From a virus, in the IMG/VR virus record IMGVR_UViG_3300008267_000014, positions 23,777-87,776 of that record: a stretch of 64,000 nucleotides of DNA. One strand, given 5' to 3'. Under the pieces are notes generated by a model that was not told where the DNA came from, searched no databases, and was given only the letters and a program-made list of their open reading frames with translations. The position numbers were made by a program, and so were the translations under genes. This document shows positions 29,706 through 54,372 of this stretch, one piece after another (position 1 is the stretch's first letter; every line of letters begins with the position of its first letter).

Positions 29706-32700
29706 ATGACTGATTTTAGTTCTCTTGGGGGTGTTGGTATCATTGGGTTTATTTCACCTAAAGGTACAAATGATACTTATGCGGTTATTGACCCTACTTA
29801 TGGTGTCGATGGTTTACGAAATGTTAACACAACTTCTGATTTAGATTTAATAACAACCGAAAGAAGACGTGCGGGTATGATTGTCGGTGTCTCTGGTGGT
29901 ACGACATATTATAAATTAAACCCTGAACCTTGGAACTATAGCTCAACCGATTGGTCAATCTTTTATACAGGGGAAAATGCATTAATTGGTGTTAGTCTTG
30001 TTAATGGGGATTTAATTTTTACAAACGCAACCGGAGGGACGATTACGATTTCGGGTATTAGTTCTAATGAAATTTATTGGACTTCAGGCTCAACTGGAAA
30101 TTTCTCAATTAAGGCTAATAATGATAGTGGGTTAGACGCTATAGGTGATTATTCATTAGCCGAAGGGTATGATACAAAAGCTATTGGTGATTATTCATTT
30201 GCCGGTGGTTCAGGAACTACAGCAACGACAATATCGAGTGTTGCATTAGGTGTTAATAGTATTTCAAATGCTACCAATGTTTTAGAATTAGATACACCGA
30301 TATCAATTTATTATACTAATTTAACGACTGAAGATTATTGTAATGATTATGGACTTTATATGATAGTAATACCAAATACTAATCCGTATATTGATTTTTA
30401 TGATTACATTTTTAATAGACAATCGACATTTATATTAAGTGGTAGTAGTGGTACTAAAATAGTGAACAATACTACAATTAGTGTTGATGATGTTTATGTG
30501 AGTTATGATACATTTTTATTTTTTTATGATTGTGAAAATGGTACTGATTATACAATAATTAGTGGTAATACTTTCATTGATACAACGGTTAGTGGTAGTT
30601 CAGCATTTGCGTTTGGGACTAATTTAAAATCTTGTGGTTCTAATAGTTTTGCTGAAGGTAGATGTAATAGTGCTATTGGTTCATATAGTCATTCTGAAGG
30701 ATATAAGACAACTAGCTTAGGTCTTGGTAGTCATTCTGAAGGTAGTTGTAATATATCTTGTGGACGTTATACTCACTCTGAAGGTGGTTTAACTACTGCT
30801 ATAGGTAGTTATAGTCATGCTGAAGGATATAATACTTCTACTATTGGTGATTATACCCATGCTGAAGGATATAATAGTAAAGCGATTGGGTTATATAGTC
30901 ATGCTGAAGGATATAATACTATCGCTTGTGGTCAATATAGTCATGCTGAAGGATATAATACTATCGCTTGTGGTCAATATAGTCATGCGGAAGGGTATAA
31001 TACTATTACTTATGGTCAATATAGTCATGCTGAAGGGAATTGTTCAAAAGCTTGCGGTTTTGGGTCACATGCTGAAGGTGGTGGTGTTTATTGTAGTGGT
31101 AACTATCTATCAGGAGGTGTTGCGATTGGTCCTGGTAGTCATGCTGAAGGTATATGTACCCTTGCATGTGGTGATGGTAGCCATGCTGAAGGGTATGGTG
31201 CTGGTGGTGTTGGTATTTGTGGTATATGTTATAGAACAATTGCATCAGGTTGTGGGTCACATGCCGAAGGGTTAGTAACAACCTCTATTGGTAGTGGGTC
31301 ACATGCGGAAGGTGGGTTTGCACGATGTATTACCAATTGTGTTGGACAAAGTTATACCGTTATTTATCTTGGTGGTACGGCAATTGGTGGTGGTAGTCAT
31401 GCTGAGGGAGGTAATACTAGAACATCAGGAATTACTAGTCATGCAGAAGGATACGGAAGTACATCATTTGGGTTTGGAGGACATTCAGAAGGAATTCATT
31501 CGACCTCAATCGGAAATGGGTCACATGCTGAAGGTGGGTTTTATATCCCTACAGCGTTTACAGGTGATATTTGTTATATTAGTGGGGGTGTTGCTATAGG
31601 GGATAGTAGTCATGCGGAAGGTATTGATACTAAATCTTGTGGTGTTGCAAGTCATGCTGAAGGTAGTGGTACTACCGCTTATGGTTTTGTTAGTCATTCG
31701 GGTGGTATTAATACAATTGCTTCTGGGAATACATCATTCATCCATTCAACCAATTCTGTTGTAATTGGTGATAGAAGTGTTGTGTTAGGAGGTCAAAATA
31801 TAACAGGTGATACATCAGACACTGTTTATGTGCCTAAATTAAATATCGGTACATTAGGTACAGGGTCTAGTATTAATAATTTAGGTATCGATGTTAATGG
31901 TTTTATTGTGACTGGAACAACTTCAGGTGGAAGTTTTACAGGTGGAACTGTAAATGGTGATACTAATTTTACAGGTGGATTATCAGCTAATACATTTAGT
32001 GCTAGCACATATTTTAATTTACCTGAAAATCCATATTGGACATCAGGTTCAACTTGGAACGGTGCAAATTATCCGATTAAAGCTAATAATGATAGTGGTT
32101 TAGATGCAACTGGTAGTTATTCAGTTGCAGAAGGTTATGGAACATGTACTATTACGTTAGCGATTAGTAGTCATGCTGAGGGACATCGTACCACAACATT
32201 TGCATGTGGTAGTCATTCCGAAGGTAGTTGTACTACGGCTTACGGTTGTTTTAGTCATAGTGAAGGTTTTTGTACTAAATCTTGTGGATGTAATAGTCAT
32301 GCTGAAGGTTGTTTTACAACATCAATAGGTAATAATAGTCATTCTGAAGGTTCGTGTAACATATCTTGTAATAATTCAAGTCACGCTGAAGGTTTTTGTA
32401 CCACATCTTTTTGTTCTTATAGTCATACTGAAGGAACTGATACTAAAACTTATGGTCAATATAGTCATGCTGAAGGACAATCGACAACAACTAGTGGTCA
32501 AAGTAGTCATGCTGAAGGTAATTTAACGACATCAATTGGTAGATATAGTCATGCTGAAGGATATTCCACTAATTCTTGTGGTTGTTATAGTCATGCTGAA
32601 GGTGAATGTTCCGATACTTGTGGTAATTATAGTCATGCTGAAGGAACTATAACCGTTTCATCGGGATGTGGTAGTCATGCTGAAGGTATTTGTACCACAT

Positions 32701-33254
32701 CTATAGGTAAACACAGTCATTCTGAGGGTAATAATACTAAATCATGCGGATGTGGTAGCCATGCTGAAGGTTATTATACAACTTCAATTGGTTTTTATAG
32801 TCATGCCGAAGGTTGTGGAACTACCTCTTTTACTGATTATAGTCACGCTGAAGGTATTTGTACGGTATCATTATCATTAGGTAGTCACTCAGAAGGGTTT
32901 TGTACTACTGCTGGAAATTGTTTTTCACATTCGGAAGGAATTTGTACTTTGACAATAGGATGTGCTAGTCATTCAGGTGGTATTAATACGATAGCTTCAG
33001 GTGACACGTCATTTATCCACTCAACAAATTCAGTTATAACCGGTAATAGAAGTGTTATTTTAGGAGGTCAAAATATAACAGGTAGTACTGATGATACAGT
33101 ATATGTCCCTGATTTAGTAATTAGAAAATCTCAAATAGTTCCTACAGGTAGTACCCATAATATTGGTGAAAATGGGTCTGTTACTTGGGATAATGATAAT
33201 TTCTATTGGAAGGCTAATGGTTTATGGTTAAAAATTAGTGGAATAACTTTTTAA
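29706..33254 (+). CDS. Second SHAEG-repeat tail fibre/adhesin with two tandem head modules
   Basis: N-terminal ERRRAGMIVGV...YYKL domain; two SHAEG arrays each closed by the GGQNITG..DTVYVP neck; C-terminal GENGSVTWDNDNFYWK module. Confidence 0.8.
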   Translation: MTDFSSLGGVGIIGFISPKGTNDTYAVIDPTYGVDGLRNVNTTSDLDLITTERRRAGMIVGVSGGTTYYKLNPEPWNYSSTDWSIFYTGENALIGVSLVNGDLIFTNATGGTITISGISSNEIYWTSGSTGNFSIKANNDSGLDAIGDYSLAEGYDTKAIGDYSFAGGSGTTATTISSVALGVNSISNATNVLELDTPISIYYTNLTTEDYCNDYGLYMIVIPNTNPYIDFYDYIFNRQSTFILSGSSGTKIVNNTTISVDDVYVSYDTFLFFYDCENGTDYTIISGNTFIDTTVSGSSAFAFGTNLKSCGSNSFAEGRCNSAIGSYSHSEGYKTTSLGLGSHSEGSCNISCGRYTHSEGGLTTAIGSYSHAEGYNTSTIGDYTHAEGYNSKAIGLYSHAEGYNTIACGQYSHAEGYNTIACGQYSHAEGYNTITYGQYSHAEGNCSKACGFGSHAEGGGVYCSGNYLSGGVAIGPGSHAEGICTLACGDGSHAEGYGAGGVGICGICYRTIASGCGSHAEGLVTTSIGSGSHAEGGFARCITNCVGQSYTVIYLGGTAIGGGSHAEGGNTRTSGITSHAEGYGSTSFGFGGHSEGIHSTSIGNGSHAEGGFYIPTAFTGDICYISGGVAIGDSSHAEGIDTKSCGVASHAEGSGTTAYGFVSHSGGINTIASGNTSFIHSTNSVVIGDRSVVLGGQNITGDTSDTVYVPKLNIGTLGTGSSINNLGIDVNGFIVTGTTSGGSFTGGTVNGDTNFTGGLSANTFSASTYFNLPENPYWTSGSTWNGANYPIKANNDSGLDATGSYSVAEGYGTCTITLAISSHAEGHRTTTFACGSHSEGSCTTAYGCFSHSEGFCTKSCGCNSHAEGCFTTSIGNNSHSEGSCNISCNNSSHAEGFCTTSFCSYSHTEGTDTKTYGQYSHAEGQSTTTSGQSSHAEGNLTTSIGRYSHAEGYSTNSCGCYSHAEGECSDTCGNYSHAEGTITVSSGCGSHAEGICTTSIGKHSHSEGNNTKSCGCGSHAEGYYTTSIGFYSHAEGCGTTSFTDYSHAEGICTVSLSLGSHSEGFCTTAGNCFSHSEGICTLTIGCASHSGGINTIASGDTSFIHSTNSVITGNRSVILGGQNITGSTDDTVYVPDLVIRKSQIVPTGSTHNIGENGSVTWDNDNFYWKANGLWLKISGITF
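30894..31019 (+). repeat. 42-bp tandem repeat (2 exact copies plus 1 diverged)
   Basis: TATAGTCATGCTGAAGGATATAATACTATCGCTTGTGGTCAA repeated; equals one 14-aa SHAEG unit. Confidence 0.9.
31921..32138 (+). repeat. 218-bp direct repeat, copy 2
   Basis: Matches 22353-22570, with mostly third-position differences. Confidence 0.9.
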
Positions 33255-42158: not shown

Positions 42159-45100
42159 TTATAAACCACCTAAATCAGTTATGGTCCAATTATAAGTGTT
42201 AGTTAAAATATCTCTTGAAGGACCTGAGTTTGAGATAAAATAATATGAATCACCACCATTAAATACAACATCGTTTCTAACTGATTGAGATGCCCATCCA
42301 TTTAATAATGAATCATATGAAAAATACGATAATGGAACATTTAAAAACATATTTTCAGCATATACTAAATCAGTTACATCCCAACCACCAATATTTTGGT
42401 CGAATGATAATGCATTTGCGAACATGTTATATGTATTAGTTACTTTCCAACTTGGTATTGGTTGATTAAATGACGTAGCACCTGAGAACATATTTGCTGT
42501 ACTAATACCGGTTACAATCCAGTTACCAATCGAAGGACTACCACCATTATTGAAAGATGTTGCGTTTACAAACATTTCAGATAATGAGTAATCTGTATTA
42601 TAAGCGTTATATATATTACTAATATCCCAGTCACCTATATTTTGATTAAATGATGTTGCGTTTCTAAACATTCCGTAGAAACCATTGGAATTACTGGTTA
42701 TCCAATTATTTAAAGGTTGGTTAAATGATGTTGCATAAGCGAACACTTCCTCCATATTATAAACTTGACTAACGTCCCAATTATTTATTGAAGAACTACC
42801 TCCGTTATTAAAAGAAGTTGCTCCTGAAAACATACGATACATATTTGTTAAACCACTTACATTCCAATCACCTAAATCTTGATTGAAATTCGTAGCACCA
42901 TTGAACATGTGTGACATCTGAGTTACATTACTAACGTCCCAATTATTTAAAGGTTGATTGAATGATGTTGCGTTAGCAAACATTGAGTCCAAATAATAAA
43001 TATTACTTGTATTCCACCCATTTAATGGTTGGTTGAAATTTGTTGCGTTAGCGAACATATAACCGATATTTGTTGCTCCGGTAATATTCCAATTATTTAA
43101 TGGTTGGTTGAAATTTGTTGCGTTATAGAACATTGCACCAAAAGTTTCTACATTACTAACGTCCCAATTATTTATTGAAGGGCTTCCGCCATTATTAAAT
43201 GATGTCGCATTACGAAACAAACCGTTCATTTCAATAACATTACTGACATTTAAATTACCAATATCTTGATTAAATGATGTTGCACTATAAAACATATTTG
43301 TAATGATAGTTCCTGGTTTAAATACCCATTGTTCAAAATTATTAATAGTTGTTAATGAAATACAATATTGGAATAAACTTTCTAAATAATATGATATATT
43401 TGTTGGAACATCCGTAACCGAAGATAAATCTAAATTAACGTATGCATAAAAATCATACTCGTTTAAATCTATGTCACCCCATTTAGTTATTGATATTGTT
43501 TTTCTTGACCCATTATAATTATAAAACCTAAATCTACCATCGATTTTAATAGTATAAACACCTGTTGATGTGTAGGTGTGTTTATGTGAGAAAAAACTAC
43601 CGGCTCCGATAGTCATTACAGTACCATCACCCCAATCAATCGTTGACCCTGAGTATGAATATATCGTAATTGCAAATTGTCTATTACCTAATTGGTAATC
43701 AGGTATTGTGGTATCTATAATCATCGTAAATGGATTAATCATTGGTACCGGTGTTGGATATGGTGTTGTAGTCGGTGTTGGTGTTACAGAAGTTGATGTT
43801 GGTGTTTGTGTTGGTAAATCAATATATGTAAATCCGGTAATACCGCAATCATCGTGAGGTGTTGCAAATGGAGTCCTTGTTTGAGTTACCGTTGGTGTAA
43901 CTGTTGGTGTCATTGTGTTGGTTGGAGATAACGTTGGTGTAATAGTCGGTGTTTGAGTAACGGTTGGTGTTGCGGTTTTTGTCGGCCTAGGTGTTGGTGT
44001 GTTAGTTTTTGTAACAGTTGGTGTTATGGTTGGTGTTGCGGTGTTCGTTTGTGTAGGAGTTGGCGTAATATAAATTGACCCTGATGATGATAATGTGGGT
44101 GTATTTGAAGATGTTATTGTGTTTGTAGGTGTGATAGTTGGTGTTATTGTGTTTGTAGGTGTAAAAGTTGGTGTTATTGTGTTTGTAGGTGTAAAAGTTG
44201 GTGTAGGTGTTCTTGTTGGTTCACATATCACGCAATTTATAGAAATTGAATTTAATATGATTGTATTCGCACCTGTAATGTCAGTAGTGGTTCCTAAATA
44301 AGTAACACATTTAGTATTACCATCAACATCGGCGTTAAATACCATACCAATCTCAATTGAACCACCACCTGGTACTATTAAAACATCATTAGTTGTATAT
44401 AGTATATTAGGGTCATTACAATCTGAGAACTTTTTACTAATAGGGCAGTTAATGTAATCATTAATAGTATTAAAAGTAACATCACCTGAGAAATTAAAAG
44501 GTCTATCAATAATACCTGATTGTGTTGGAGTAACTGTTGGCGTTGCTGTAGGTGTTGGTGTATATTTAACAACATTAGCATCGATTATAATACTATTACA
44601 TACATTAGTCGATGTTGGTGTTGGTGTCGGTGTAGGTGTTGATGATGTTGTAGGTGTTGGTGTCGTACAATCAACGGGCGAACAATCAAAAAATGTATTA
44701 AAATCTAAAACTGAACAATTATTAGTTGGTGTTGGAGTTGGTGTAGGACAAATCCCTACCGATAAGTATTCATCAAATAAATCAGGACAATTACTATAGC
44801 ATGGTGATTTACCGGCCAATAAACAGTCACCACCCAAAGTATTCGATAAACACCATTGGTTAGACGTGTATTTATAATAAAGGTAATAACCATTAGTACT
44901 ACCAGTCCAATAAGGTGCTGTATAATACGTTCCCGCTAATGTAAAATTATCGTTATATATATCAAACCCTGTATTAGTTAAACAATAAAATTCTTCAGTA
45001 CATGGTTCAGGACAATCACATAAAATATCACTTTCATTTATAATACCATATTCAGATTCTGTAGTTGGGTAACTTGATGAACAAACAACTACAGATGTTG

Positions 45101-45608
45101 AGGCTGAAACTGTTATAGGGGATATCGTTCCATAACAACAAGGTGTAAATGTGAAATCAATAGATTCCGTTTCGTTATTATTAGTTAATGTAAATTCTTT
45201 ACAATAACAACAAATTGGGTCTTCTTCAACTATACTAATATTAACATACTCACCAAAAGTACCGTTAGGATATCTAGTACTACAAATAGTAATACTATCA
45301 CCAAAACCTATTGTTATTGGTGATGTTAATTCTTCATCACAACAAGGTTCAAAATTAATTATTGCATCTGTTGTTTCTGAGTTATTATTAATGTTATATC
45401 TATAACAGTAACATGGCGGTGTTTCAGTTAATTCAATTAAGAAATCACTACCTATTTCACCAACAGGTGCTGAATTTGAAAGAATAGTAAATGACCCTTC
45501 AGGTGATACTGATAATGGCGAACTTAATTCTTCCGTACAACAAGGTTCAAACGATATCGTTGATAATTCCGCTCCTTGATTAGTTATCGAATATGCTTTA
45601 CAACTCAT
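42159..45608 (-). CDS. Modular surface protein: Cys-rich triple repeat, Thr/Pro stalk, PKD-like domain, DUF285/BspA-type repeats
   Basis: Three C..Y/F.I.N...F.PCC....SP units; TPT linkers; IDWGDG..HTY..GVY; about ten MF.NATSFNQPL.NWDVSNV repeats. Confidence 0.8.
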   Translation of the reverse strand: MSCKAYSITNQGAELSTISFEPCCTEELSSPLSVSPEGSFTILSNSAPVGEIGSDFLIELTETPPCYCYRYNINNNSETTDAIINFEPCCDEELTSPITIGFGDSITICSTRYPNGTFGEYVNISIVEEDPICCYCKEFTLTNNNETESIDFTFTPCCYGTISPITVSASTSVVVCSSSYPTTESEYGIINESDILCDCPEPCTEEFYCLTNTGFDIYNDNFTLAGTYYTAPYWTGSTNGYYLYYKYTSNQWCLSNTLGGDCLLAGKSPCYSNCPDLFDEYLSVGICPTPTPTPTNNCSVLDFNTFFDCSPVDCTTPTPTTSSTPTPTPTPTSTNVCNSIIIDANVVKYTPTPTATPTVTPTQSGIIDRPFNFSGDVTFNTINDYINCPISKKFSDCNDPNILYTTNDVLIVPGGGSIEIGMVFNADVDGNTKCVTYLGTTTDITGANTIILNSISINCVICEPTRTPTPTFTPTNTITPTFTPTNTITPTITPTNTITSSNTPTLSSSGSIYITPTPTQTNTATPTITPTVTKTNTPTPRPTKTATPTVTQTPTITPTLSPTNTMTPTVTPTVTQTRTPFATPHDDCGITGFTYIDLPTQTPTSTSVTPTPTTTPYPTPVPMINPFTMIIDTTIPDYQLGNRQFAITIYSYSGSTIDWGDGTVMTIGAGSFFSHKHTYTSTGVYTIKIDGRFRFYNYNGSRKTISITKWGDIDLNEYDFYAYVNLDLSSVTDVPTNISYYLESLFQYCISLTTINNFEQWVFKPGTIITNMFYSATSFNQDIGNLNVSNVIEMNGLFRNATSFNNGGSPSINNWDVSNVETFGAMFYNATNFNQPLNNWNITGATNIGYMFANATNFNQPLNGWNTSNIYYLDSMFANATSFNQPLNNWDVSNVTQMSHMFNGATNFNQDLGDWNVSGLTNMYRMFSGATSFNNGGSSSINNWDVSQVYNMEEVFAYATSFNQPLNNWITSNSNGFYGMFRNATSFNQNIGDWDISNIYNAYNTDYSLSEMFVNATSFNNGGSPSIGNWIVTGISTANMFSGATSFNQPIPSWKVTNTYNMFANALSFDQNIGGWDVTDLVYAENMFLNVPLSYFSYDSLLNGWASQSVRNDVVFNGGDSYYFISNSGPSRDILTNTYNWTITDLGGL
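44112..44204 (-). repeat. 30-bp tandem repeat x3 in the Thr/Pro stalk
   Basis: TGTTATTGTGTTTGTAGGTGT(A/G)A(A/T)AGTTGG repeated, encoding TPTFTPTNTI. Confidence 0.85.
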
Positions 45609-45972: not shown

Positions 45973-46872
45973 ATGTCAGATGATAGTGAAATTTTAGTGG
46001 ATTTATTACGTGATGTATTAGGTGATGAACATTTACACTATGAACATAAGGGGCAAATTTCATTCAATTGTCCCGAATGTGATGAGGATAGGAATAAAGG
46101 TAATTTAGAAGTTAATTATTTTTCACATTTATATAAATGTTGGAGTTGTTCCGAGGTTAATAATACTCACGGTCCTTTAGGTAAATTATTCGATAAATAC
46201 GGTACAAAACAACAAAAAAAAGTGTATGAAGTTATTAGACCAGAACAATATACCCCAAAAGAAAAACAGGTTAAGAAATTAAAATTACCTGATAATTTTA
46301 AATACTTTAAAGAGGTTAGTAATGCTTACCCTATTAGACGTACAGCATATAACTATTTAATTAGTCGAGGTATTACTGATAAAATTATCGATAAATATAA
46401 AATAGGTTTTTGTGATAGTGGAAGTCATTCTGGTAGAATCGTAGTTCCTTCATTTAACGAAATGGGTGTACTGAACTATTATATTGCTAGAAGTTGGTAT
46501 CCGAACACTAAAGCAAAATATAAAAACCCTGAAACACCGAAGGATGAAATCATTTTCAATGAAAGTTTAATAAATTGGAATGAAGATATTTTTTTAGTTG
46601 AAGGTGTTTTTGATTCGTTTTTCTTACCTAATAGTATTCCTATGTTAGGTAAACATATGTCAGAGTTATTGTTTACTAGTTTATATAATAGAGCTATGGG
46701 TAATATAATAATCGCTTTAGATGGTGATGCGTTCGATAACGGAGTTAAATTATATCATGAATTAAATGGTGGTGGTTTGTATGGTAAAATAAAAATTTTG
46801 AAATTACCTATAGATAAAGATGTTTGTGATTTAAAGGGTGAAATAAATGAATTTTATTATAATATGAGATGA
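45973..46872 (+). CDS. DNA primase (Zn-binding domain plus TOPRIM)
   Basis: CPEC...CWSC; YLISRGI; RIVVP; KYKNP; LVEGVFD; IALDGD. Confidence 0.9.
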   Translation: MSDDSEILVDLLRDVLGDEHLHYEHKGQISFNCPECDEDRNKGNLEVNYFSHLYKCWSCSEVNNTHGPLGKLFDKYGTKQQKKVYEVIRPEQYTPKEKQVKKLKLPDNFKYFKEVSNAYPIRRTAYNYLISRGITDKIIDKYKIGFCDSGSHSGRIVVPSFNEMGVLNYYIARSWYPNTKAKYKNPETPKDEIIFNESLINWNEDIFLVEGVFDSFFLPNSIPMLGKHMSELLFTSLYNRAMGNIIIALDGDAFDNGVKLYHELNGGGLYGKIKILKLPIDKDVCDLKGEINEFYYNMR

Positions 46873-47738
46873 GTGATATATTAATAATTAAAGATGAAAT
46901 TTTAAAAATTTTAGAAAATAAACGAAGTGAGTTACAGTTAACTTTTTTAGAAGATACACATACTTACACTATGATTGACAAAAATGGTGTATTAAGGTCT
47001 GATTGGCCGTCCGTATCGAAAGTGATGAAACTTTTTTATACTGAATTTGACACTGATGGTATTGCCGAAAAGAAATCTAAAGGTAATCCTGAAGAAAAGG
47101 CTCGTTTACTAAAAGAATGGAGTGATGCTGGTGCATATTCAACAAATATGGGGTCTAGAGTTCATTACTATCTTGAAAAAAAATCTGTCGAAATGTTCGG
47201 TATCGATAAAGAAGTAAGAGCACCTATATTTGAGGTCGATTTTACACAAATACTAAAAGGTGACTCAATGATAACTGCGGGAACTAAGTATTTGGAGTTA
47301 ATGAAAGAAAGAGATGGTATTCTTTTGGATACTGAAATAGTTTTTGGTTCAAATGATTTAGGGTATACAGGACAAGCGGATACCGGATGGTTATTTTACA
47401 ATAAAGAAAAAAATGATATTGGTATTGTTATAACTGATTATAAAACTAATAAAAAGAAAAATTTTGAATCAAATCGGTTTACTAAAAAAATGAAATACCC
47501 ATTTGATAATTTAGATGATACTGCATTAGGTCATTATTTTACACAATTGCCATTATATGGTAAGTTATTATTGGATATGTTAAAAGGTTCTAAATATGAA
47601 GACATTAAAATTTACGGTTGTATTGTTGTTCATCTAAATGAAAATGGTGAATTTGAAGAATATCGAGTACCAAAAGATATTCAAACAACTATTCTTAACA
47701 TGGATATGTCAAAATATTTGACTAAAATAAAAAAATAA
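46869..47738 (+). CDS. PD-(D/E)XK exonuclease
   Basis: HTY...PSVS; GSRVHYYLE; E....YTGQAD...ITDYKTNK; Y.TQL.LY. Confidence 0.8.
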   Translation: MSDILIIKDEILKILENKRSELQLTFLEDTHTYTMIDKNGVLRSDWPSVSKVMKLFYTEFDTDGIAEKKSKGNPEEKARLLKEWSDAGAYSTNMGSRVHYYLEKKSVEMFGIDKEVRAPIFEVDFTQILKGDSMITAGTKYLELMKERDGILLDTEIVFGSNDLGYTGQADTGWLFYNKEKNDIGIVITDYKTNKKKNFESNRFTKKMKYPFDNLDDTALGHYFTQLPLYGKLLLDMLKGSKYEDIKIYGCIVVHLNENGEFEEYRVPKDIQTTILNMDMSKYLTKIKK

Positions 47739-47748
47739 ATTATAGTTT
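47717..47748 (+). promoter_or_regulatory. Putative early/middle promoter
   Basis: TTGACT (47718)-N17-TATAGT (47741); also reads as TTTG-N20-TATAGTTT. Confidence 0.55.
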
Positions 47749-47752
47749 AAAC

Positions 47753-47866
47753 ATGGAAAACAATATCAAATGGTATTACAACACAACGTGGGATAATACG
47801 AATAATAAAATAATAGTTAACTACATAATAAACAATAAACTAAATTTTAATTTAAATGGAAACTAA
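47753..47866 (+). CDS. Possible 37-aa peptide (not in the ORF track)
   Basis: ATG directly behind the promoter; MENNIKWYYNTTWDNTNNKIIVNYIINNKLNFNLNGN fills the intergenic gap. Confidence 0.3.
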   Translation: MENNIKWYYNTTWDNTNNKIIVNYIINNKLNFNLNGN

Positions 47867-48092
47867 CCAACCTAGAATTGATTTAAAACAACAAGCCACC
47901 GTTGAGTGTGAAAATTGTAAAGGAATGTACTTTAAAGAGGTTACTTTATTAAAACGAGTACCTGGTTTAATGCTTGGTAAAAGTGAAGATACATTAGTTC
48001 CCTTTCCGACATACAAATGTGATTCTTGTGGACACGTAAATACTGAGTTTGCGTTATTTGATGAAACTAATAAAACAAATTTAATTCAATAA
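47856..48092 (+). CDS. Small zinc-ribbon protein
   Basis: CENC...CDSCGHVN. Confidence 0.75.
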   Translation: METNQPRIDLKQQATVECENCKGMYFKEVTLLKRVPGLMLGKSEDTLVPFPTYKCDSCGHVNTEFALFDETNKTNLIQ

Positions 48093-48098
48093 TAAAAC

Positions 48099-48875
48099 AT
48101 GATAACTAAATTAGTTCATTTTTCGGATTTACATCTTAGAATGTATAAAGACCATAAATTGTATCGTGATATTTTAACTGATATGATAAATCAATTTAGA
48201 GCTCTTAAACCGGATAGAATTGTTTTTACGGGAGATTTAGTACATTCTAAAAACCAAGTTACACCTGAATTAATTGAAATGGTTAGTTGGATATTGACAG
48301 AATGTTCAAACATTTCAAAGACTGTGATTATCCCCGGTAACCATGATTTTATACCTAACTTAGAGAGGTTAGATACTTTAACACCTATCATTAATTCGTT
48401 AAATAATCCTAATATCTTTTATTTTAAAGATAGAGGTGTTTACGAAGATGAAAACGTGTCTTGGTGTGTTTACTCACAATTTCAAGGTAATATACCACCT
48501 GATATAACAGATGCCAAGGGTATTAAAGTTGGATTATTTCATGGACCTATTCAAGGAATGAAGACTGAATTAGGATTTGATTTTGGAGAGGAAGCATATC
48601 CTGTTACTAAATTTGATGGTTTAGATGTTGTATTGTGTGGTGATATCCATTTACGACAAGAATTTAAGATACAAAATGGTAAGGGGTATATGATTGGTTC
48701 TACAATTTCTCAAAATTTTTCTGAAAAAATTGATAGACATGGTTATGGTATTTTAGATTTAACAACTATGAAATATGATTATGTTGATTTACATAATCCA
48801 AAACCATACATGTCATTTAGAATTACATCATATGATGATATTATTAAGGAAAGTGAAAAATTGGTAAATGTTTAA
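48099..48875 (+). CDS. Mre11/SbcD/gp47-like metallophosphoesterase (nuclease domain only)
   Basis: SDLH, TGDLVH, PGNHD, FHG and GDIH motifs; Rad50 lies downstream. Confidence 0.9.
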   Translation: MITKLVHFSDLHLRMYKDHKLYRDILTDMINQFRALKPDRIVFTGDLVHSKNQVTPELIEMVSWILTECSNISKTVIIPGNHDFIPNLERLDTLTPIINSLNNPNIFYFKDRGVYEDENVSWCVYSQFQGNIPPDITDAKGIKVGLFHGPIQGMKTELGFDFGEEAYPVTKFDGLDVVLCGDIHLRQEFKIQNGKGYMIGSTISQNFSEKIDRHGYGILDLTTMKYDYVDLHNPKPYMSFRITSYDDIIKESEKLVNV

Positions 48876-49740
48876 AATTAATGATTCATATAATAAGGAC
48901 ATCCTCAGTTTTTGTAAAACTAATAATATTGAGGATGTTCAATTATTTGTTAATAAATGTTTTAAACAAGGTTTTGATGTTAAAAAATATGGTTTGTTAG
49001 GTGGTGATGTTGAAGAAATTGTAAAAGAAATCGAAGTTATAAAAGAAGTTGAAGTAATTAAAGAGGTTTTTATTGAAAAAGAAATCCCTGTAGAAATTAT
49101 TAAAGAAATTATAGTCGAAAAACCTGTTGAAGTTATTAAAGAAATTATAGTCGAAAAGACTATACCTGTCGAGACTATTAAGGAGGTAATTGTTGAAAAG
49201 ACTATACCTGTTGAGATTATTAAGGAAGTTATAGTTGAAAAGGTTACTGAAGTTTTATCACCACCAATTGAAGTTAAAGTTATTGAATATATTGATAGAG
49301 AAATTAAAGTTGAAGTCCCTATTGAAAAGATAATTTATGTATCAGGTGAAACTCATACAATTATTAATGAAAAAATAATTGAAGTTCCTGTTGAAAAAAT
49401 TGTGACAAACACTATTGAGAAAATAATTGAAATCCCTGTTGAAAAGATTATTACAAATACTATTGAAAAAATTGTTGAAGTTCCTGTAGAAAAAATTGTA
49501 ATAAATACTGTTGAAAAAATTGTTGAAGTTGAAAAAATTGTTGAAGTTATTAAGGAAGTTGATAATGCGAATCACAAACAAAAAATGTTAGAAAATACTT
49601 TACAAAAAGTGAGGGAAGAATTGATTATAAAAAATAAAAAAATAGAAGAATTAGAAGAAATAAATAAAAAATTAGAATCTTTAAATTCACAACAAACTGC
49701 GGTTTATTTAAAAGGGTCTAATCTAAGTCAAAAAATGTAA
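48868..49740 (+). CDS. Protein with EKIVEVPV (alveolin/articulin-like) repeats and a C-terminal coiled coil
   Basis: ~180 aa made of E/K/I/V/P repeats. Confidence 0.75.
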   Translation: MFKINDSYNKDILSFCKTNNIEDVQLFVNKCFKQGFDVKKYGLLGGDVEEIVKEIEVIKEVEVIKEVFIEKEIPVEIIKEIIVEKPVEVIKEIIVEKTIPVETIKEVIVEKTIPVEIIKEVIVEKVTEVLSPPIEVKVIEYIDREIKVEVPIEKIIYVSGETHTIINEKIIEVPVEKIVTNTIEKIIEIPVEKIITNTIEKIVEVPVEKIVINTVEKIVEVEKIVEVIKEVDNANHKQKMLENTLQKVREELIIKNKKIEELEEINKKLESLNSQQTAVYLKGSNLSQKM

Positions 49741-49742
49741 AT

Positions 49743-50084
49743 ATGGAAATTATAGTTTGGTTTATAGTAAGTTACGGGTTAATGAATATTATGGTTTATG
49801 GGTCAATATTCCAAGGACTTCGTAATAGTTTTAAAAAATGGGGCGAAGGTAATCATCCATTAAATTTTTTAGGTGAATTTATATCAGGTATATTAACTTG
49901 TCCGATGTGTTTTAGTTTTCACGGAGGTTGGTTTTTATCGTTAGTTTTATTTTCACCTATTAATCATTTGTTTCATACTCCGTTATGGTATAGTTGGTTT
50001 TTTGATGCCATTTTATCATCAGGTGCAGTATGGGCAATCAATTCAATAATTGAGTGGTTTGAAGAAAATCGACCTATCAAATGA
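49743..50084 (+). CDS. Small membrane protein, DUF1360-like
   Basis: Three hydrophobic segments; GSIF..LR and ILTCPMC motifs. Confidence 0.65.
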   Translation: MEIIVWFIVSYGLMNIMVYGSIFQGLRNSFKKWGEGNHPLNFLGEFISGILTCPMCFSFHGGWFLSLVLFSPINHLFHTPLWYSWFFDAILSSGAVWAINSIIEWFEENRPIK

Positions 50085-50116
50085 TTTGAGAATATTAAAA
50101 TTTAATGTTATAATTT
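50085..50116 (+). promoter_or_regulatory. Putative early/middle promoter
   Basis: TTGAGA (50086)-N17-TATAAT (50109) with an extended TG; also TTTG-N20-TATAATTT. Confidence 0.6.
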
Positions 50117-50134
50117 AATAATTGATATACAACT

Positions 50135-50314
50135 ATGGGAAAAAGAGATAAAGAACATCGCAAAAAAGTTCAAAAAAGAAATGAACGGCTTCTTAATGAA
50201 CAAAAACTAATGGAAAAACAGTATAAAGAAATGCTAGAACAAAGATTAGCTTTGATTAAAGAACGATTAGCGTCAATGTCTGGTAATAGTGAAAACGACA
50301 TAACTATTGATTAA
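50135..50314 (+). CDS. Basic helical 59-aa protein (not in the ORF track)
   Basis: MGKRDKEHRKKVQKRNERLLNEQKLMEKQYKEMLEQRLALIKERLASMSGNSENDITID; sits behind a promoter and stops 1 nt before the Rad50 ATG. Confidence 0.7.
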   Translation: MGKRDKEHRKKVQKRNERLLNEQKLMEKQYKEMLEQRLALIKERLASMSGNSENDITID

Positions 50315-50315
50315 A

Positions 50316-52646
50316 ATGGAAGAAACTTTAGAGTTACAAAAATTAGATAATCCCTACATACAGGTTGTTTGGGAGGATTATGCGGAAAATTTCACACAGG
50401 AAAAAATTAAAAGTGTTAAACATTATTTCCAAAAGAAATATAATACGACACATATTAATATTATTACTAAATCTAAATCGGTTGATGAGGTTAATCATAA
50501 TGTTGATATCTCATTCAATATTTTAGATACTAATTACCAATTAGAATTAATTAAAGGGTTTTTAAAATCTAAAAATAATGAAAACTTATTTGATAAGATA
50601 TATGACTTAGATACTCAAGTTAATAATAAAATGGTTTTATCTCAAAATGAGGTAACACCATTTAAAAAATGGTATATTAAAAATATCGAATTTTCTAATT
50701 TCTTATCATATGGTGAAAAACAAAAAATTGATTTTGAAAAATGTAATGGTATTTCGGTTGTTGAATCAAATCCCCCAAATTTTGGTGGGAAGTCGGTATT
50801 AACCGTTGATTTGTTATTATACTTATTTTTTAATGAGACAACAAAAACCACTAAAGCTGAAGAGATTTTTAATAGATTTACGGATAAAAATACGGTTTCT
50901 GTTAAAGGTGAAATAGTTATCGATGGTGATGAATATATTATTGAGAGAAACATTACTCGTAAATTATCTAAAAACGGTGAATGGAATGTTAAAACTGAAT
51001 TAGATTTTTTCAAAAAATTATCGGATGGTAGTTTACAAAACTTCACCGGTGAACAAAGACGTGAAACAGAATCGTTTATTAAAACATCCATCGGTACTAA
51101 GGATGATTTTTTAATGACTATATTAACGACAGCAACAAATCTCGAAGACTTAATTGATTCAAAACCTACGGCTCGTGGACAAGTATTATCTCGATTCATG
51201 GGTCTTGACTTTTTAAAGAAAAAAGAAGAGTCGGCTAAGGAATTATATAGTGAGTTTTCTAAATCGATGATTTCAAATGTTTATAACACCGAATCATTAA
51301 AAACTGATATTGAAACTTATAAAAATAATATTCAATTAATGACAGATGAAAATGTGAATTTACATAAAGATTTAATTGATATACAAGAGAGAATAATTAA
51401 AGGTCAAGAATATCGAGATAGTTTGATGCAAAGTAAACATACCGATATTGATAGGGAAATTAGTCAATTATCACCTGATAAAGTTTCTAATGAAGTACAG
51501 TTGTTAAAAAATCAAAGAAGTGGTGTTGAAAAACAATTAACCGAATTAAAGGTAGTTGAACCTAGTGAATTTTATCATGAAGACAAACACGATGAGGTTA
51601 AGAATGAGTATAACAAACAATACCAAGAATTAGTTAGAGTTCAAACTGAGATTAAGTCTATTGAGAAGCTACAATCATCGGTTAGTGGGGGTATTATATG
51701 TGAACATTGTGGTATTGATTTAATGAACGCTTCAATCACACAAGCAAAAATTAATGAACTTGCTGGATTTATTACGCAAAAAGACCAAATTGATGGGTTA
51801 ATGCGTGAATTATCCAACAAAGAAAAGGGTTTTGTCACACTTAAAAAAGAGTTTGATGAATATGAAAAGAACAAACTTATTAAGGAGAAATACGAATTAA
51901 GTATAGAATCTTTTGACCTTAAAATTAAAGGGTTGAATGAAAAATTACAAAAGTATAATGAGTTACAGGATAAGATTTTAGCTAATGATAAAATAGAAAC
52001 TCAATTACTTAAAGCGGGTCAAAGAATTACCGAATTAGAGTCCGAAAAAAATACGGTAAACAGAAAAATTGATAATAACAAATATCAAATGGAGTCTTTG
52101 AACGAAAAGATAAAACATAATTTATCCCTCATCGAAAAAATTATTGAAGAATCGGGTAAAGAGAAAATATACAAACTTTATTTAGAAATTTACGGTAAGA
52201 ATGGAATCTCTAAAATAATAATGAAAACTATGTTACCTTTAATAAATTCTGAACTTCAAAGATTACTTGAAGATAGTTGTCATTTTAGGTTAGAAGTTAG
52301 AATTAATGATAAGAATGAAGTTGATTTTATTATGATTGATAATAACACTCAAGTTGAAAAGAATATGGCGTCTGGGTCAGGATATGAAAGAAGTATTGCA
52401 TCCCTATCACTAAGGTCAGTTCTAAGTAAAATATGTTCATTACCAAAACCGAATATAGTGGTATTTGACGAAATTTTTGGTAAGGTATCTAACGATAATT
52501 TAGAGATGGTTTCAACATTTTTTGGTAAAATTAAAGAATATTTTGAAAAAATATTTGTTATCACTCATAATCCATTGGTTAGTACTTGGTCAGATAATGT
52601 TGTTAAAATTAAAAAGATAGATAATGTAAGTTATGTGACACAATAA
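50316..52646 (+). CDS. Rad50/SbcC/gp46-like SMC ATPase with a ~115-aa N-terminal extension
   Basis: IEFSNFLSYG; Walker A NFGGKS; zinc hook CEHC between coiled coils; signature SGSGYE; Walker B VVFDE; H-loop ITH. Confidence 0.92.
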   Translation: MEETLELQKLDNPYIQVVWEDYAENFTQEKIKSVKHYFQKKYNTTHINIITKSKSVDEVNHNVDISFNILDTNYQLELIKGFLKSKNNENLFDKIYDLDTQVNNKMVLSQNEVTPFKKWYIKNIEFSNFLSYGEKQKIDFEKCNGISVVESNPPNFGGKSVLTVDLLLYLFFNETTKTTKAEEIFNRFTDKNTVSVKGEIVIDGDEYIIERNITRKLSKNGEWNVKTELDFFKKLSDGSLQNFTGEQRRETESFIKTSIGTKDDFLMTILTTATNLEDLIDSKPTARGQVLSRFMGLDFLKKKEESAKELYSEFSKSMISNVYNTESLKTDIETYKNNIQLMTDENVNLHKDLIDIQERIIKGQEYRDSLMQSKHTDIDREISQLSPDKVSNEVQLLKNQRSGVEKQLTELKVVEPSEFYHEDKHDEVKNEYNKQYQELVRVQTEIKSIEKLQSSVSGGIICEHCGIDLMNASITQAKINELAGFITQKDQIDGLMRELSNKEKGFVTLKKEFDEYEKNKLIKEKYELSIESFDLKIKGLNEKLQKYNELQDKILANDKIETQLLKAGQRITELESEKNTVNRKIDNNKYQMESLNEKIKHNLSLIEKIIEESGKEKIYKLYLEIYGKNGISKIIMKTMLPLINSELQRLLEDSCHFRLEVRINDKNEVDFIMIDNNTQVEKNMASGSGYERSIASLSLRSVLSKICSLPKPNIVVFDEIFGKVSNDNLEMVSTFFGKIKEYFEKIFVITHNPLVSTWSDNVVKIKKIDNVSYVTQ

Positions 52647-52681
52647 TTTGGTAGGTAATAAAAAAATAGGTATATTTGTAT
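52645..52681 (+). promoter_or_regulatory. Bacteroidota-type primary-sigma promoter, repeat copy 1
   Basis: TTTG (52647-50)-N20-TATATTTG (52671-78) matches the Bacteroides/Flavobacterium -33/-7 consensus. Confidence 0.85.
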
Positions 52682-52706
52682 CTGAAATCTATTAAAATAA
52701 ACTAAT

Positions 52707-52943
52707 ATGAATACACAAATTGTATTAATCAGTGTTGAACATAATAATGCGAGAAAAGTATGTGAAAAAATTCAAAATGGGACTTATCCTACATTTAGTC
52801 ATTTAAAAAAAAGTTTGAATGAAGAATTGGGTGGGTTAGATGAAGTCATCGTTTTAACAATTAGTCAATTTATGGATGAAGTGAATGACCAAATAATGGA
52901 TAATTTATCCGATTATTTTATGACCTATGTTAAGATAGGTTAA
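52707..52943 (+). CDS. Hypothetical protein (78 aa) flanked by duplicated promoters
   Basis: Clean ORF between the two promoter repeats. Confidence 0.7.
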   Translation: MNTQIVLISVEHNNARKVCEKIQNGTYPTFSHLKKSLNEELGGLDEVIVLTISQFMDEVNDQIMDNLSDYFMTYVKIG

Positions 52944-52947
52944 AATA

Positions 52948-52983
52948 AATTTGGTAGGTAATAAAAAATAGGTATATTTGTAT
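52948..52983 (+). promoter_or_regulatory. Bacteroidota-type primary-sigma promoter, repeat copy 2
   Basis: TTTG (52950-53)-N19-TATATTTG (52973-80); identical to copy 1 except for one A in the run. Confidence 0.85.
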
Positions 52984-52996
52984 AAAATTTAATATT

Positions 52997-53566
52997 ATGG
53001 AAACTAAAAAAAATAAGTACATTTTATTTTTATTCGACAAACATGAAAAACAAGATGAGTTTGTGTCTGAAATTGCTCAAGAAATATCAATTTTAACTGA
53101 TGATACTAATATATCTTTTTATTACGGTCCTGAGGCTTCAGTTTATACATTTTCGTCTGTTGATGATTTACCTACGGTCACTGAATTTGTTGAAATAATT
53201 TTAAGTATTTTTAACGCCACCTATTTTTTATTACCTTATACCAATGACAATCTGTCATTCGGACTTGAGAAAGATGTTGCTGAACATTTGTTTGGAGACT
53301 CAAAACCTGATAAAATGACCGAATTTGATAATGAAATCAAAAATTTGAATGATTTTGGTAATATTATGCCGAATTTTAATTCTGAAATGATGGAAATGTT
53401 TGGTGAGGAAGAAGACGAGATTAAAAAAATTATTAGAATGAATAATAAAAAATCGTTACAGCCTAGTATGGACGAAATCCTTGAAAAAATTTCTGATAAA
53501 GGATATAGTTCATTAACAAAAAAAGAGTTAGATTTGCTTAATCAATATTCAAAACAATTAAACTAA
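52997..53566 (+). CDS. Hypothetical protein with a C-terminal DUF6576-like helical hairpin
   Basis: DEILEKISDKGYSSLTKKELDLL resembles the D.ILDKI...Gy.SLT..EK..L tail of Bacteroidota rhomboid proteins. Confidence 0.6.
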   Translation: METKKNKYILFLFDKHEKQDEFVSEIAQEISILTDDTNISFYYGPEASVYTFSSVDDLPTVTEFVEIILSIFNATYFLLPYTNDNLSFGLEKDVAEHLFGDSKPDKMTEFDNEIKNLNDFGNIMPNFNSEMMEMFGEEEDEIKKIIRMNNKKSLQPSMDEILEKISDKGYSSLTKKELDLLNQYSKQLN

Positions 53567-53571
53567 TTTAT

Positions 53572-54372
53572 ATGAAAACTAAAAATACAGGTATGACAAT
53601 TAATCAAGACGAAATACAAGTTTACTTAAAAGACATTCGTAAAATAAAAGTAATGACCGCTAGTCGAGAAAAAGAATTATCAGAAATGATGTTATCATCG
53701 GATATAACTGATAGTAAAAAACTCGAAATACAAAAAGAACTTTTGGAAGGTAATCTACGTTTTGTTATTACAATTGCTAAACAATATCAGAATCAAGGGT
53801 TAAGTTTCTCAGATTTGATATCTGAAGGGAACTTAGGGTTATTGAAAGCAATTCAAAATTTTGATTGGTCTAAAAATTTAAGATTTATATCTTATGCGGT
53901 TTGGTGGGTTAAACAATCAATTTTACAATCGTTAAATGATAACGCTAGAACTATTAGATTACCGGTTAATGTTGTTCAAGATTTATATAAAGCTAAAAAA
54001 GAGGCTGATAATAAAGGGGGTACTTTAGATTCTAAATTCTTAAACTTACCGTCTATAATTGCTTTAGATATGAATATTAATGAAGATGGTGATACATTAA
54101 TAGATGTTATTAAAAATGATGGTGCTGATATGCCTGATGAGATTTTTAACACTAAAGATATGTTGAAAACAAAATTAATAGGTTTGTTAGATATCTTAGA
54201 TGAAAGAGAAAAAGCTATTATTCAGGACTATTTCGGTTTGACAGGTACGCAAAGAACGTTAGAAGACATTGGTAATGATTTTGGTTTAACCAAGGAGAGA
54301 GTACGACAAATTAAAGAACGTGCGTTGAGAGTCTTACGTAATAATTCATCAGAATTATTTGATTATTTATAA
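53572..54372 (+). CDS. Phage-encoded RpoD/RpoS-family sigma70 factor
   Basis: Region 1.2 YLKDI; region 2 NLRFVITIAKQYQNQGL...DLISEGNLGL...FISYAVWWVKQSI; region 4.2 TLEDIG..FGLTKERVRQIKE.AL. Confidence 0.95.
   Translation: MKTKNTGMTINQDEIQVYLKDIRKIKVMTASREKELSEMMLSSDITDSKKLEIQKELLEGNLRFVITIAKQYQNQGLSFSDLISEGNLGLLKAIQNFDWSKNLRFISYAVWWVKQSILQSLNDNARTIRLPVNVVQDLYKAKKEADNKGGTLDSKFLNLPSIIALDMNINEDGDTLIDVIKNDGADMPDEIFNTKDMLKTKLIGLLDILDEREKAIIQDYFGLTGTQRTLEDIGNDFGLTKERVRQIKERALRVLRNNSSELFDYL

Follow-up and report, generated by a model that had tools for sequence, protein, structure and literature searches.

The Mre11-Rad50 enzyme encoded in a 64,000-nucleotide stretch of virus DNA (IMG/VR record IMGVR_UViG_3300008267_000014, positions 23,777 to 87,776; hereafter the window, to which coordinates refer unless another locus is named) appears to be the product of a gene in pieces. 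It probably descends from a phage gene for a single-chain Mre11-Rad50 fusion that was broken in the loop between strands 1 and 2 of the Mre11 capping domain. The upstream gene product would then comprise the nuclease domain and capping strand 1, and the downstream product would comprise capping strand 2, a helix, strand 3, the helix-loop-helix and a complete Rad50 ATPase with its zinc hook. The Mre11 stop codon (48873-48875), three further open reading frames (ORFs) and a new start at 50316 lie between the halves, which do not form one open reading frame.

The two pieces and their main features, all on the + strand, are the following.

48099-48875 (+): Mre11/SbcD piece, 258 amino acids (aa), with a complete phosphoesterase (nuclease) domain, the first capping strand and a 16-residue tail.
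48117-48134, 48228-48245, 48336-48347, 48534-48548 and 48636-48650 (+): Mre11 motifs HFSDLH, GDLVH, GNHD, LFHGP and CGDIH, respectively.
48804-48872 (+): predicted first capping strand PYMSFRI (residues 236-242) and conserved C-terminal tail (243-258), the upstream edge of the fracture.
50316-52646 (+): Rad50/SbcC piece, 776 aa from the ATG at 50316 (779 aa from the in-frame TTG at 50307), with the putative remainder of Mre11 followed by a complete Rad50.
50316-50669 (+): N-terminal extension of Rad50, residues 1-118, with a poorly conserved head (1-12), the capping remainder, a linker, the helix-loop-helix and a short linker to the ATPase.
50352-50471 (+): predicted capping-domain remainder, with strand PYIQVVWED (13-21), helix FTQEKIKSVKHYFQKKY (26-42) and strand HINIITK (46-52).
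50532-50633 (+): predicted helix-loop-helix, equivalent to the Rad50-binding domain of Mre11, formed by NYQLELIKGFLKS (73-85) and LFDKIYDLDTQVNNKM (91-106).
50778-50795, 51699-51710, 52377-52388, 52458-52472 and 52563-52571 (+): Rad50 Walker A, hook, signature, Walker B and H-loop, respectively.

The Mre11 and Rad50 Pieces

The Mre11 piece carries phosphoesterase motifs I-V (DxH, GD, GNHD, H and GDxH), by which an Mre11/SbcD nuclease is recognized, and its residues D10/H12, D46, N81/H82, H148 and H184 do not vary across 37 aligned relatives. It matches Pfam Metallophos over residues 4-184 (6.7e-13, above the cut-off) and the SbcD-like PHROG family phrog_100 over residues 1-245 (7.4e-18). Among PDB sequences it matches SbcD (7dog_A, 2.7e-5), and its last 120 residues align to positions 159-282 of the 323-residue S. 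aureus SbcD chain. Because this alignment ends at 282 of 323, the piece appears to stop where the capping domain begins.

Canonical phage Mre11 proteins have 341 aa (Staphylococcus phage), 346 aa (Enterococcus phage iF6) and 364 aa (SPO1 gp21.3), so that the window protein is 83-106 residues shorter than these three. The initial annotation, which was made from the sequence without database searches, was therefore correct that this ORF ends soon after the phosphoesterase motifs. The ORF ends 8-16 residues past the first capping strand and does not carry the C-terminal helix-loop-helix that binds Rad50. The capping domain on the nuclease chain is incomplete, yet not wholly absent, since one strand remains.

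The downstream ORF encodes the bipartite ABC-type head and CxxC hook that characterize Rad50/SbcC: Walker A NFGGKS (residues 155-160), hook CEHC (462-465), signature SGYE (688-691), Walker B VVFDE (715-719) and the H-loop THN (750-752). It matches the SbcC-like family phrog_77 over residues 30-778 (3.3e-43). Pfam SbcC_Walker_B reaches 20.2 bits, under its cut-off of 27, and a phmmer search of PDB sequences with this ORF gave no match with an expect value (E) of 1 or less. Metagenomic gene calls give this piece 776 aa. The ATPase starts with WYIKNIEFSNF at residue 119 of the 776-aa form, and alignments with canonical SPO1-like Rad50 proteins start no earlier than residue 121-124 of the 779-aa form, which sets the length of the extension at about 118 residues, in agreement with the roughly 115 extra residues originally noted.

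Homologues of the extension are abundant. A search restricted to this region recovered 5166 of them at E<=0.01 among 5307 candidates of 428-1364 aa, and those among the 120 matches listed are mostly 774-797 aa long and 67-100% identical in that part. A phmmer search of 1.84 billion representatives with the 117-residue extension returned 123 cluster representatives at E<=0.001. Of these, 122 are Rad50-sized proteins or contig-end fragments matched at their N-terminus, and none of the 123 is an Mre11-sized protein with the extension at its C-terminus. Judged by these homologues, the extension is not a chance open frame.

Fused Relatives Are Colinear with the Two Pieces

Searches of named phages by tblastn revealed single ORFs encoding both enzymes in Microcystis phage Mel-JY01 (1066 aa), Tenacibaculum phage pT24 (1310 aa) and a 735-kilobase (kb) uncultured phage (1202 aa); fused locus L003 is one 1202-aa ORF. 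A protein collection contains 26 fused proteins of 987-1538 aa with Metallophos and AAA_23/SMC_N domains, and 597 of 598 matches to the fusion pattern in IMG/VR were confirmed. The fused loci analyzed here are the best 80 of the IMG/VR matches, all full-length fusions, from which 71 distinct uninterrupted N-terminal parts were extracted.

On the alignments, the window proteins map onto these fused relatives in the same order, without overlap or loss. Mre11 residues 1-248 correspond to 1-255 of fused protein P0250 and Rad50 residues 3-460 to 253-716, while in P0246 the two proteins correspond to 13-288 and 277-1058. With fused protein L085, BLASTP aligns Mre11 residues 2-242 to 4-250 (4e-59, 38% identity) and Rad50 residues 13-160 to 265-410 (2e-10, 28% identity), and coverage of the 371-residue N-terminal part of L085 by the Mre11 piece ends at 250. 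Two adjacent ORFs on one strand are therefore colinear with an intact homologue, and sequence kinship with the fused proteins extends over both.

The extension itself was compared by hhalign with a profile built only from the 71 fused proteins, giving a probability of 93.5% and an E value of 2.3e-7 over 99 columns. In this comparison window Rad50 residues 7-110 correspond to fused positions 259-364, a span that runs from the second capping strand through the helix-loop-helix. The strand assignments used below come from BLASTP and hhalign; a MAFFT alignment (A2) had placed the first strand of the extension wrongly. Lengths also agree, as 258 and 118 residues sum to 376, compared with 371 for the fused N-terminal part and 341-364 for canonical phage Mre11.

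The Cut Falls inside the Capping Domain

Residues 1-371 of L085 were modelled from a 121-row alignment with a predicted local distance difference test (pLDDT) value of 88.5. The top Foldseek matches of this model are full-length Mre11 chains (3qg5_D at 2.3e-13, and also 3tho_B and 6s6v_A). Structural alignment by VIA-align to 7dog_B, which comprises the nuclease and capping domains of SbcD, covers model residues 5-300 (Z 25.3, root-mean-square deviation 3.1, 274 residues aligned). Full-length T. maritima Mre11 and E. coli SbcD chains extend further, to 363 for 3tho_B (Z 24.6) and to 361 for 6s6v_A (Z 23.8) and 7yzo_B (Z 23.5), each from residue 5, whereas other, unrelated phosphoesterases align only up to about 240. 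From these end points, residues 241-300 of the model correspond to the capping domain and 323-358 to the helix-loop-helix.

The capping domain of the model consists of strand E243-251, strand E264-272, helix H276-290 and strand E296-299, and is followed by helices H323-337 and H343-358. Strand 236-242 of the window Mre11 aligns to E243-251. Rad50 residues 13-21, 26-42 and 46-52 are the counterparts of E264-272, H276-290 and E296-299, and residues 73-85 and 91-106 those of H323-337 and H343-358, so that the elements of the extension match the remaining elements one to one and in order. The modelled structure thus supports a cut in the loop between capping strands 1 and 2, inside the capping domain. 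It had been proposed from the sequence that the capping and Rad50-binding parts of Mre11 now sit on Rad50; this holds for the helix-loop-helix and for most of the capping domain, while the first capping strand (236-242) stays on Mre11.

The residues that flank the break are few. The Mre11 tail is 36% identical to that of the divergent subgroup described below, compared with 37% for the nuclease domain, and because this conserved tail resembles the loop of the fused proteins, only a few residues appear to have been added at the break.

Predicted Reassembly of the Enzyme

The two proteins would be expected to reassemble without covalent joining. A complex prediction for the 258-aa piece and the 118-residue extension scored 0.81 (0.81, 0.81 and 0.82 in three runs), compared with 0.00 for the best of three controls. 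It passes a mark that was reached by 116 of 157 solved complexes and by 2 of 215 mismatched pairs; the alignments were built by us. The runs share at least 51% of their contacts, with a partner pLDDT of at least 61. Because capping domains have been solved as single chains, this pass may in part reflect memory of, or likeness to, solved Mre11 structures.

The predicted interface joins Mre11 residues 234-245 to Rad50 residues 9-21 and 25-42. Confident contacts link Mre11 residues 236, 238, 240 and 242 to Rad50 residues 13-14, 15, 17 and 19, and also involve helix residues 30-42. We infer a strand complementation exactly at the break, in which Mre11 strand 236-242 would pair with Rad50 strand 13-20 and pack on helix 26-42, rebuilding the capping domain. 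The helix-loop-helix, which normally clasps the base of the Rad50 coiled coil, would be tethered in cis to its own Rad50. The predicted outcome is an ordinary Mre11(2)-Rad50(2) end-processing machine serving phage recombination and replication.

A single chain might instead be restored at the RNA or protein level, by intron splicing, ribosomal bypass or trans-splicing of a split intein. Split inteins do occur in other fractured phage genes, as described by Dassa et al. (2009, PMC2677866), and an insert resembling an intein follows Walker A in relatives of this Rad50. At the locus itself, however, an Rfam search of 47500-53000 revealed no intron or other RNA family, the sole match being a microRNA model with an E value of 0.95. 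The 1.4-kb interval consists of three ORFs conserved as proteins, and the 16 and 12 residues added at the break are too few for intein halves and show no Cys/Ser/Thr junction or intein motifs. Rejoining of this kind is hardly credible, and noncovalent assembly is the reading that we retain.

Conservation of the Split

The split form was surveyed in a close set of 80 viral loci, whose Mre11 is 69-74% identical to that of the window, and in a divergent subgroup of 31 loci (Mre11 34-42% and Rad50 32-36% identical). In every one of the 80 close loci the match to Mre11 stops at query residue 253-258. The extension is present on Rad50 in every one of the 72 close loci that reach this gene, 1174-2494 nucleotides downstream (median 1418), and the same cut is found in 31 of 31 divergent loci. 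The two-ORF state accordingly holds in 72 of the 80 close loci, those that reach Rad50, and throughout the divergent subgroup. A primase gene lies upstream in 80/80 fused and 76/80 split loci.

These comparisons bear on the idea that the break inactivated the enzyme and that its pieces are decaying or now serve separate functions. By itself, the nuclease piece could work as an independent phosphoesterase. However, all catalytic motifs of both pieces are kept, the record contains a single copy of Rad50, and the pieces, the break point and the tail are conserved over 111 loci to about 35% identity. We consider inactivation very unlikely and regard the split, as judged by its distribution, as old and under selection.

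Some divergent relatives carry further interruptions. In L171 (3491-8790), and also in L169, L170, L172 and L194, the enzyme is in three pieces, with a second break after GDIH in addition to the break in the capping domain; in L171 a 299-aa ORF (4245-5144) lies between pieces and precedes a 72-aa middle piece. The Rad50 of L168-L172 (in L171, a 936-aa protein at 5980-8790) and the proteins P0185, P0216 and P0237 contain, directly after the Walker A GGK, an insert of roughly 150-185 residues that starts with C(I/L)R. By its sequence it looks like a P-loop intein.

Order of Events

A tree of the Mre11 domain (58 rows, 260 columns) separates the fused and split forms from three canonical phage proteins with support of 100/100. 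The split forms make up one clade (100/99) that is placed among the fused lineages with weak support, and a protein from an uncultured phage that is split within its nuclease domain (LR756508.1) is nested in a fused clade (99/97). In a quick tree of the concatenated parts (44 rows, 1014 columns), the two split subgroups form one clade and the fused and split forms together are separated from canonical forms, each with a Shimodaira-Hasegawa-like approximate likelihood ratio (SH-aLRT) of 100. Here the split clade is sister to the fused proteins P0256, P0250 and LR756503 (97), and other fused clades lie outside.

The order from fusion to new split is inferred mainly from domain logic, with tree topology in addition. 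A fusion step is required because the presence of the Mre11 C-terminus on Rad50 needs one, and because a capping domain spread over two chains cannot be primitive.

Several results weigh against this history. In approximately unbiased (AU) tests, holding the fused forms monophyletic costs 3.2 log-likelihood units in the Mre11 tree (p-AU 0.164) and 4.7 in the concatenated tree (p-AU 0.395), and is rejected in neither. The link from the extension to the Mre11 C-terminus is indirect, running through homology to fused relatives and the predicted structure of one of them, because the extension alone has no significant fold match and no Pfam capping or Rad50-binding family. Modelled alone (pLDDT 78.5; strands 14-21 and 46-53, helices 28-42, 72-85 and 89-110), it gave no Foldseek match in the PDB at E<=0.001. 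In a VIA wide search its top hits were unrelated chains (Z 4.8), with an Mre11 chain, 9bi4_B, within noise at rank 9 (Z 4.3). Pfam SbcD_C and Mre11_DNA_bind were found neither in the extension nor in 121 fused or split pieces. No charge-complementary clasp is seen in the sequences of the Mre11 tail and the Rad50 head, both of which are acidic. Finally, the source record is a linear fragment of 87,776 bases with a CheckV completeness of 30, of which the window is the 3′ 64 kb.

The missing fold matches could mean that the extension is an unrelated accessory domain, that Mre11 is merely truncated, and that the similarity to fused proteins is coincidental; the best Pfam hit, PBECR1 with an E value of 0.012, fails to reach its cut-off. 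Against this stand the profile match to the fused proteins, the strict colinearity with a single break point, the one-to-one correspondence of secondary structure and the predicted pairing of strands exactly at the break, which together leave a coincidence with very little probability. Part of a domain with a free pair of helices is not something that can be searched by itself. The idea that the extension derives from SbcD fared differently by route, finding no match when the extension was searched by itself and being favored when it was linked through hhalign to fused proteins whose model matches full-length Mre11/SbcD.

The AU tests leave room for another order, in which the split is older in this lineage and the fusions formed from it when the intervening genes were lost and the halves were joined in frame. 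They allow the fused forms as one clade with the split forms as sister, and the stem of the split clade in the Mre11-domain tree is long (1.32). However, the best trees place the split clade beside one fused subclade with other fused clades outside, and the second, independent break at another site is nested among fused forms. Moreover, a cut in the capping domain cannot be primitive, as canonical Mre11 in phages, bacteria, archaea and eukaryotes carries the capping domain and helix-loop-helix on the nuclease chain, and the C-terminal third of Mre11 on Rad50 needs a fusion step in any case. An older split is improbable on these grounds, and we favor the splitting of a fused gene. The suggestion of an ancestral fusion that was split again at a new point is borne out in that colinear fused relatives exist, as well as a split form shared by 111 loci, but this order of events is favored rather than proved, as neither AU test rejects the alternative.

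Genes between the Two Pieces

The interval between the halves contains the following features.

48868-49740 (+): intervening gene 1, p290, 290 aa, with an N-terminal domain of about 45 aa, EVIKE-type repeats and a coiled coil; 8 nucleotides are shared between its start and the end of the Mre11 ORF.
49743-50084 (+): intervening gene 2, p113, 113 aa, a small, hydrophobic protein whose hydropathy points to a probable membrane helix at the N-terminus.
50086-50114 (+): sigma-70-like site TTGAGA-17-TATAAT with an upstream TG, matching 11 of 12 consensus positions, in the 50-nucleotide gap before p59.
50135-50314 (+): intervening gene 3, p59, a Lys/Glu-rich protein of 59 aa; its stop lies 1 nucleotide before the Rad50 ATG.

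The overlap of Mre11 with p290 and the abutment of p59 and Rad50 suggest co-transcription and coupled translation. Homologues of p290 were detected by tblastn in 79 of the 80 close loci, and in six of six divergent loci that were read a shorter p290 homologue lies between the halves, immediately upstream of Rad50. By the same method p113 is present in 73/80 close and 0/31 divergent loci. For p59 the figures are 43/72 among the close loci that extend as far as Rad50 and 0/31 among the divergent loci. Within 4 kb of fused genes, tblastn revealed p290, p113, p59, the Zn-ribbon gene and the exonuclease gene in 0 of 80 loci each. Unrelated genes had been thought to be inserted between the halves. 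Three genes are indeed there, and their distribution indicates that p113 and p59 are confined to the subgroup of the window, while p290, found in both subgroups, is not a recent arrival.

No family for p290 was found in Pfam or PHROGs, and its matches in the Atlas are viral hypothetical proteins only (model pLDDT 0.34). Members of the p290 family share the N-terminal motif ..CxxNNIxxIDxFxxKCxKQGFxxxKYG.. and vary from 109 to 290 aa with the number of E-V/I-K-E-V-type repeats (for example, L176 5646-5975 and L173 5270-5974). Because p290 stays between the halves in the whole split clade down to about 35% identity, it might be an accessory subunit, a phage-specific third partner that chaperones or regulates reversible docking of the nuclease onto Rad50. 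This is a tentative idea that we consider unlikely. If it were true, the covalent link between nuclease and ATPase would have been turned into a reversible joint made by strand complementation, and the break would be more than a tolerated scar.

A promoter between the halves, which the initial annotation also proposed, did not hold up. In 52 distinct relatives the corresponding region never contains a sigma-70-like site with as many as 10 of 12 matching positions, and such sites are no more numerous in the region than in shuffled sequences. The site at 50086-50114 is a single good consensus match that is unique to the window, and the idea of a conserved promoter was rejected. A sigma-70 family factor with regions 2 and 4 (53572-54372, + strand; phrog_351, 1.6e-53) is encoded 0.9 kb 3′ of Rad50, and because the phage has such a factor, host-type promoter scans may not describe its own promoters.

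Searches of Pfam and PHROG found no endonuclease family in the three intervening ORFs of the window. Ten of the 80 close loci contain a further 0.7-1.2 kb directly after Mre11. In five loci (L013, L035, L049, L058 and L084, at about 6826-7624), an endonuclease VII/HNH-like ORF (phrog_1035, 2e-23) occupies this position and is preceded by a 53-aa CcdA-like ORF. Three of the ten carry DNA methyltransferases (N4/N6 or Dam-type), and an RmlC-like dTDP-sugar epimerase occurs in one of the ten and in one further locus. Beyond the five endonuclease loci, the slot is occupied in L021, L046, L061 and L069. Taken together, these gene contents mark the slot directly after the Mre11 piece as an apparent insertion hot spot.

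In the 484-kb uncultured phage LR756508.1 (L004, 5950-10175), a fused gene is broken inside the nuclease domain. A 243-aa piece that ends after GDIHKRQ is separated from an 861-aa piece by a 305-aa ORF in which Pfam recognizes a TnsA-like endonuclease domain (5.8e-6). In the lineage of the window, the gene was most likely broken by inserted mobile DNA, and the site would then have stayed a landing place for cargo genes.

Comparison with Known Systems

Natural Mre11/Rad50 fusions were described by Yoshida, Claverie and Ogata (2011, PMC3175470), whose text, in the parts used here, reports Mimivirus R555, its abundant homologues in aquatic viral metagenomes and phage primase genes adjoining the metagenomic homologues. 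The fused relatives of the window belong to the same family, with the same order of nuclease, capping domain, helix-loop-helix, short linker and Rad50 and with a primase upstream. In the window, unlike those fusions, the enzyme is encoded as two polypeptides, the cut lies within the capping domain and three genes intervene. Neither "split" nor "fission" appears as a word in that paper. Full-text literature searches, supplements aside, found no capping-domain split of Mre11/Rad50.

The Aeh1 nrdA gene is reportedly split by mobE. Fractured genes compiled by Dassa et al. (2009, PMC2677866) include an "SbcD-like" Lake Gatun locus whose halves are separated by a Vsr-like endonuclease ORF; a split intein is present at the break in most of the published cases and absent from this one. 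The window resembles such genes in that a phage DNA-metabolism gene lies in two colinear ORFs with inserted DNA, few extra flanking residues and overlapping neighbor ORFs, and in that the pieces are presumed to reassemble without splicing. LR756508.1, with its break after GDIH and its TnsA-like endonuclease ORF, is of the published type. In the window, by contrast, the break lies in a loop of the capping domain and not in the nuclease domain, there is no split intein, and the interval has no endonuclease but three cargo genes, one of which is conserved across the split clade. Unlike the window, 5 of the 80 close loci do have an endonuclease VII/HNH-like gene at the site.

Canonical two-gene Mre11-Rad50 systems, such as those of T. 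maritima (3qg5/3tho), E. coli (SbcCD, 6s6v/7yzo) and SPO1 (gp21.3/gp21.9), have the same catalytic motifs, zinc hook, coiled coil and list of parts. Their gene boundary, however, follows the helix-loop-helix, whereas in the window it falls about 125 residues earlier, and most of the capping domain and the Rad50-binding domain would be covalently part of Rad50. In SPO1 (L167, 607-4908), gp21.3 and gp21.9 are separated by five small genes, 21.4-21.8, one of which has the annotation RecBCD inhibitor. The split form is thus not alone in having cargo between the subunit genes.

If the proposed history is correct, these phages offer a natural experiment on the modularity of the Mre11-Rad50 machine. 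The capping domain would tolerate a cut in a loop, with the small rebuilt domain as the sole remaining link between nuclease and ATPase, and the helix-loop-helix would work, or at least be kept by selection, when it is covalently on Rad50. The arrangement would be a ready-made design for splitting the complex or assembling it conditionally, and could serve to test the contributions of capping and tether. It would also extend the list of sites of breakage or invasion in this phage gene family, which would now comprise the nuclease domain, the capping domain and the intein-like insert at Walker A, and would lend weight to the idea that mobile DNA preferentially targets the replication and repair genes of large phages. 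An oddity of annotation would be explained as well, namely the thousands of metagenomic "Rad50/SbcC" proteins with an N-terminal extension that are encoded beside "short" SbcD genes.

Genomic Context

The window has a G+C content of about 27-30% and encodes ribonucleotide reductase, a baseplate wedge, tail-fibre proteins, DNA methyltransferases and a sigma factor (Pfam/PHROG), gene content that identifies it as a genome fragment from a large tailed phage. The locus had no megablast match in the phage collection. The Mre11/Rad50 locus sits inside a replication/recombination block on the same strand, whose upstream members are the following.

45973-46872 (+): primase, an upstream neighbor of the Mre11 piece.
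46869-47738 (+): exonuclease, which follows the primase.
Between the exonuclease and the Mre11 piece (+): Zn-ribbon ORF.

On the opposite strand, positions 42159-45608 (-) encode an 1149-aa protein with long Thr/Pro-rich linkers and many tandem "NATSFNQ" repeats of about 25 residues in its C-terminal half; by these features it looks like a surface or receptor-binding protein. Two large paralogues of 1137 and 1182 aa (22331-25741 and 29706-33251, + strand), which lie near the tail-fibre genes, each carry 7-8 repeats of phrog_25468, a family of unknown function.

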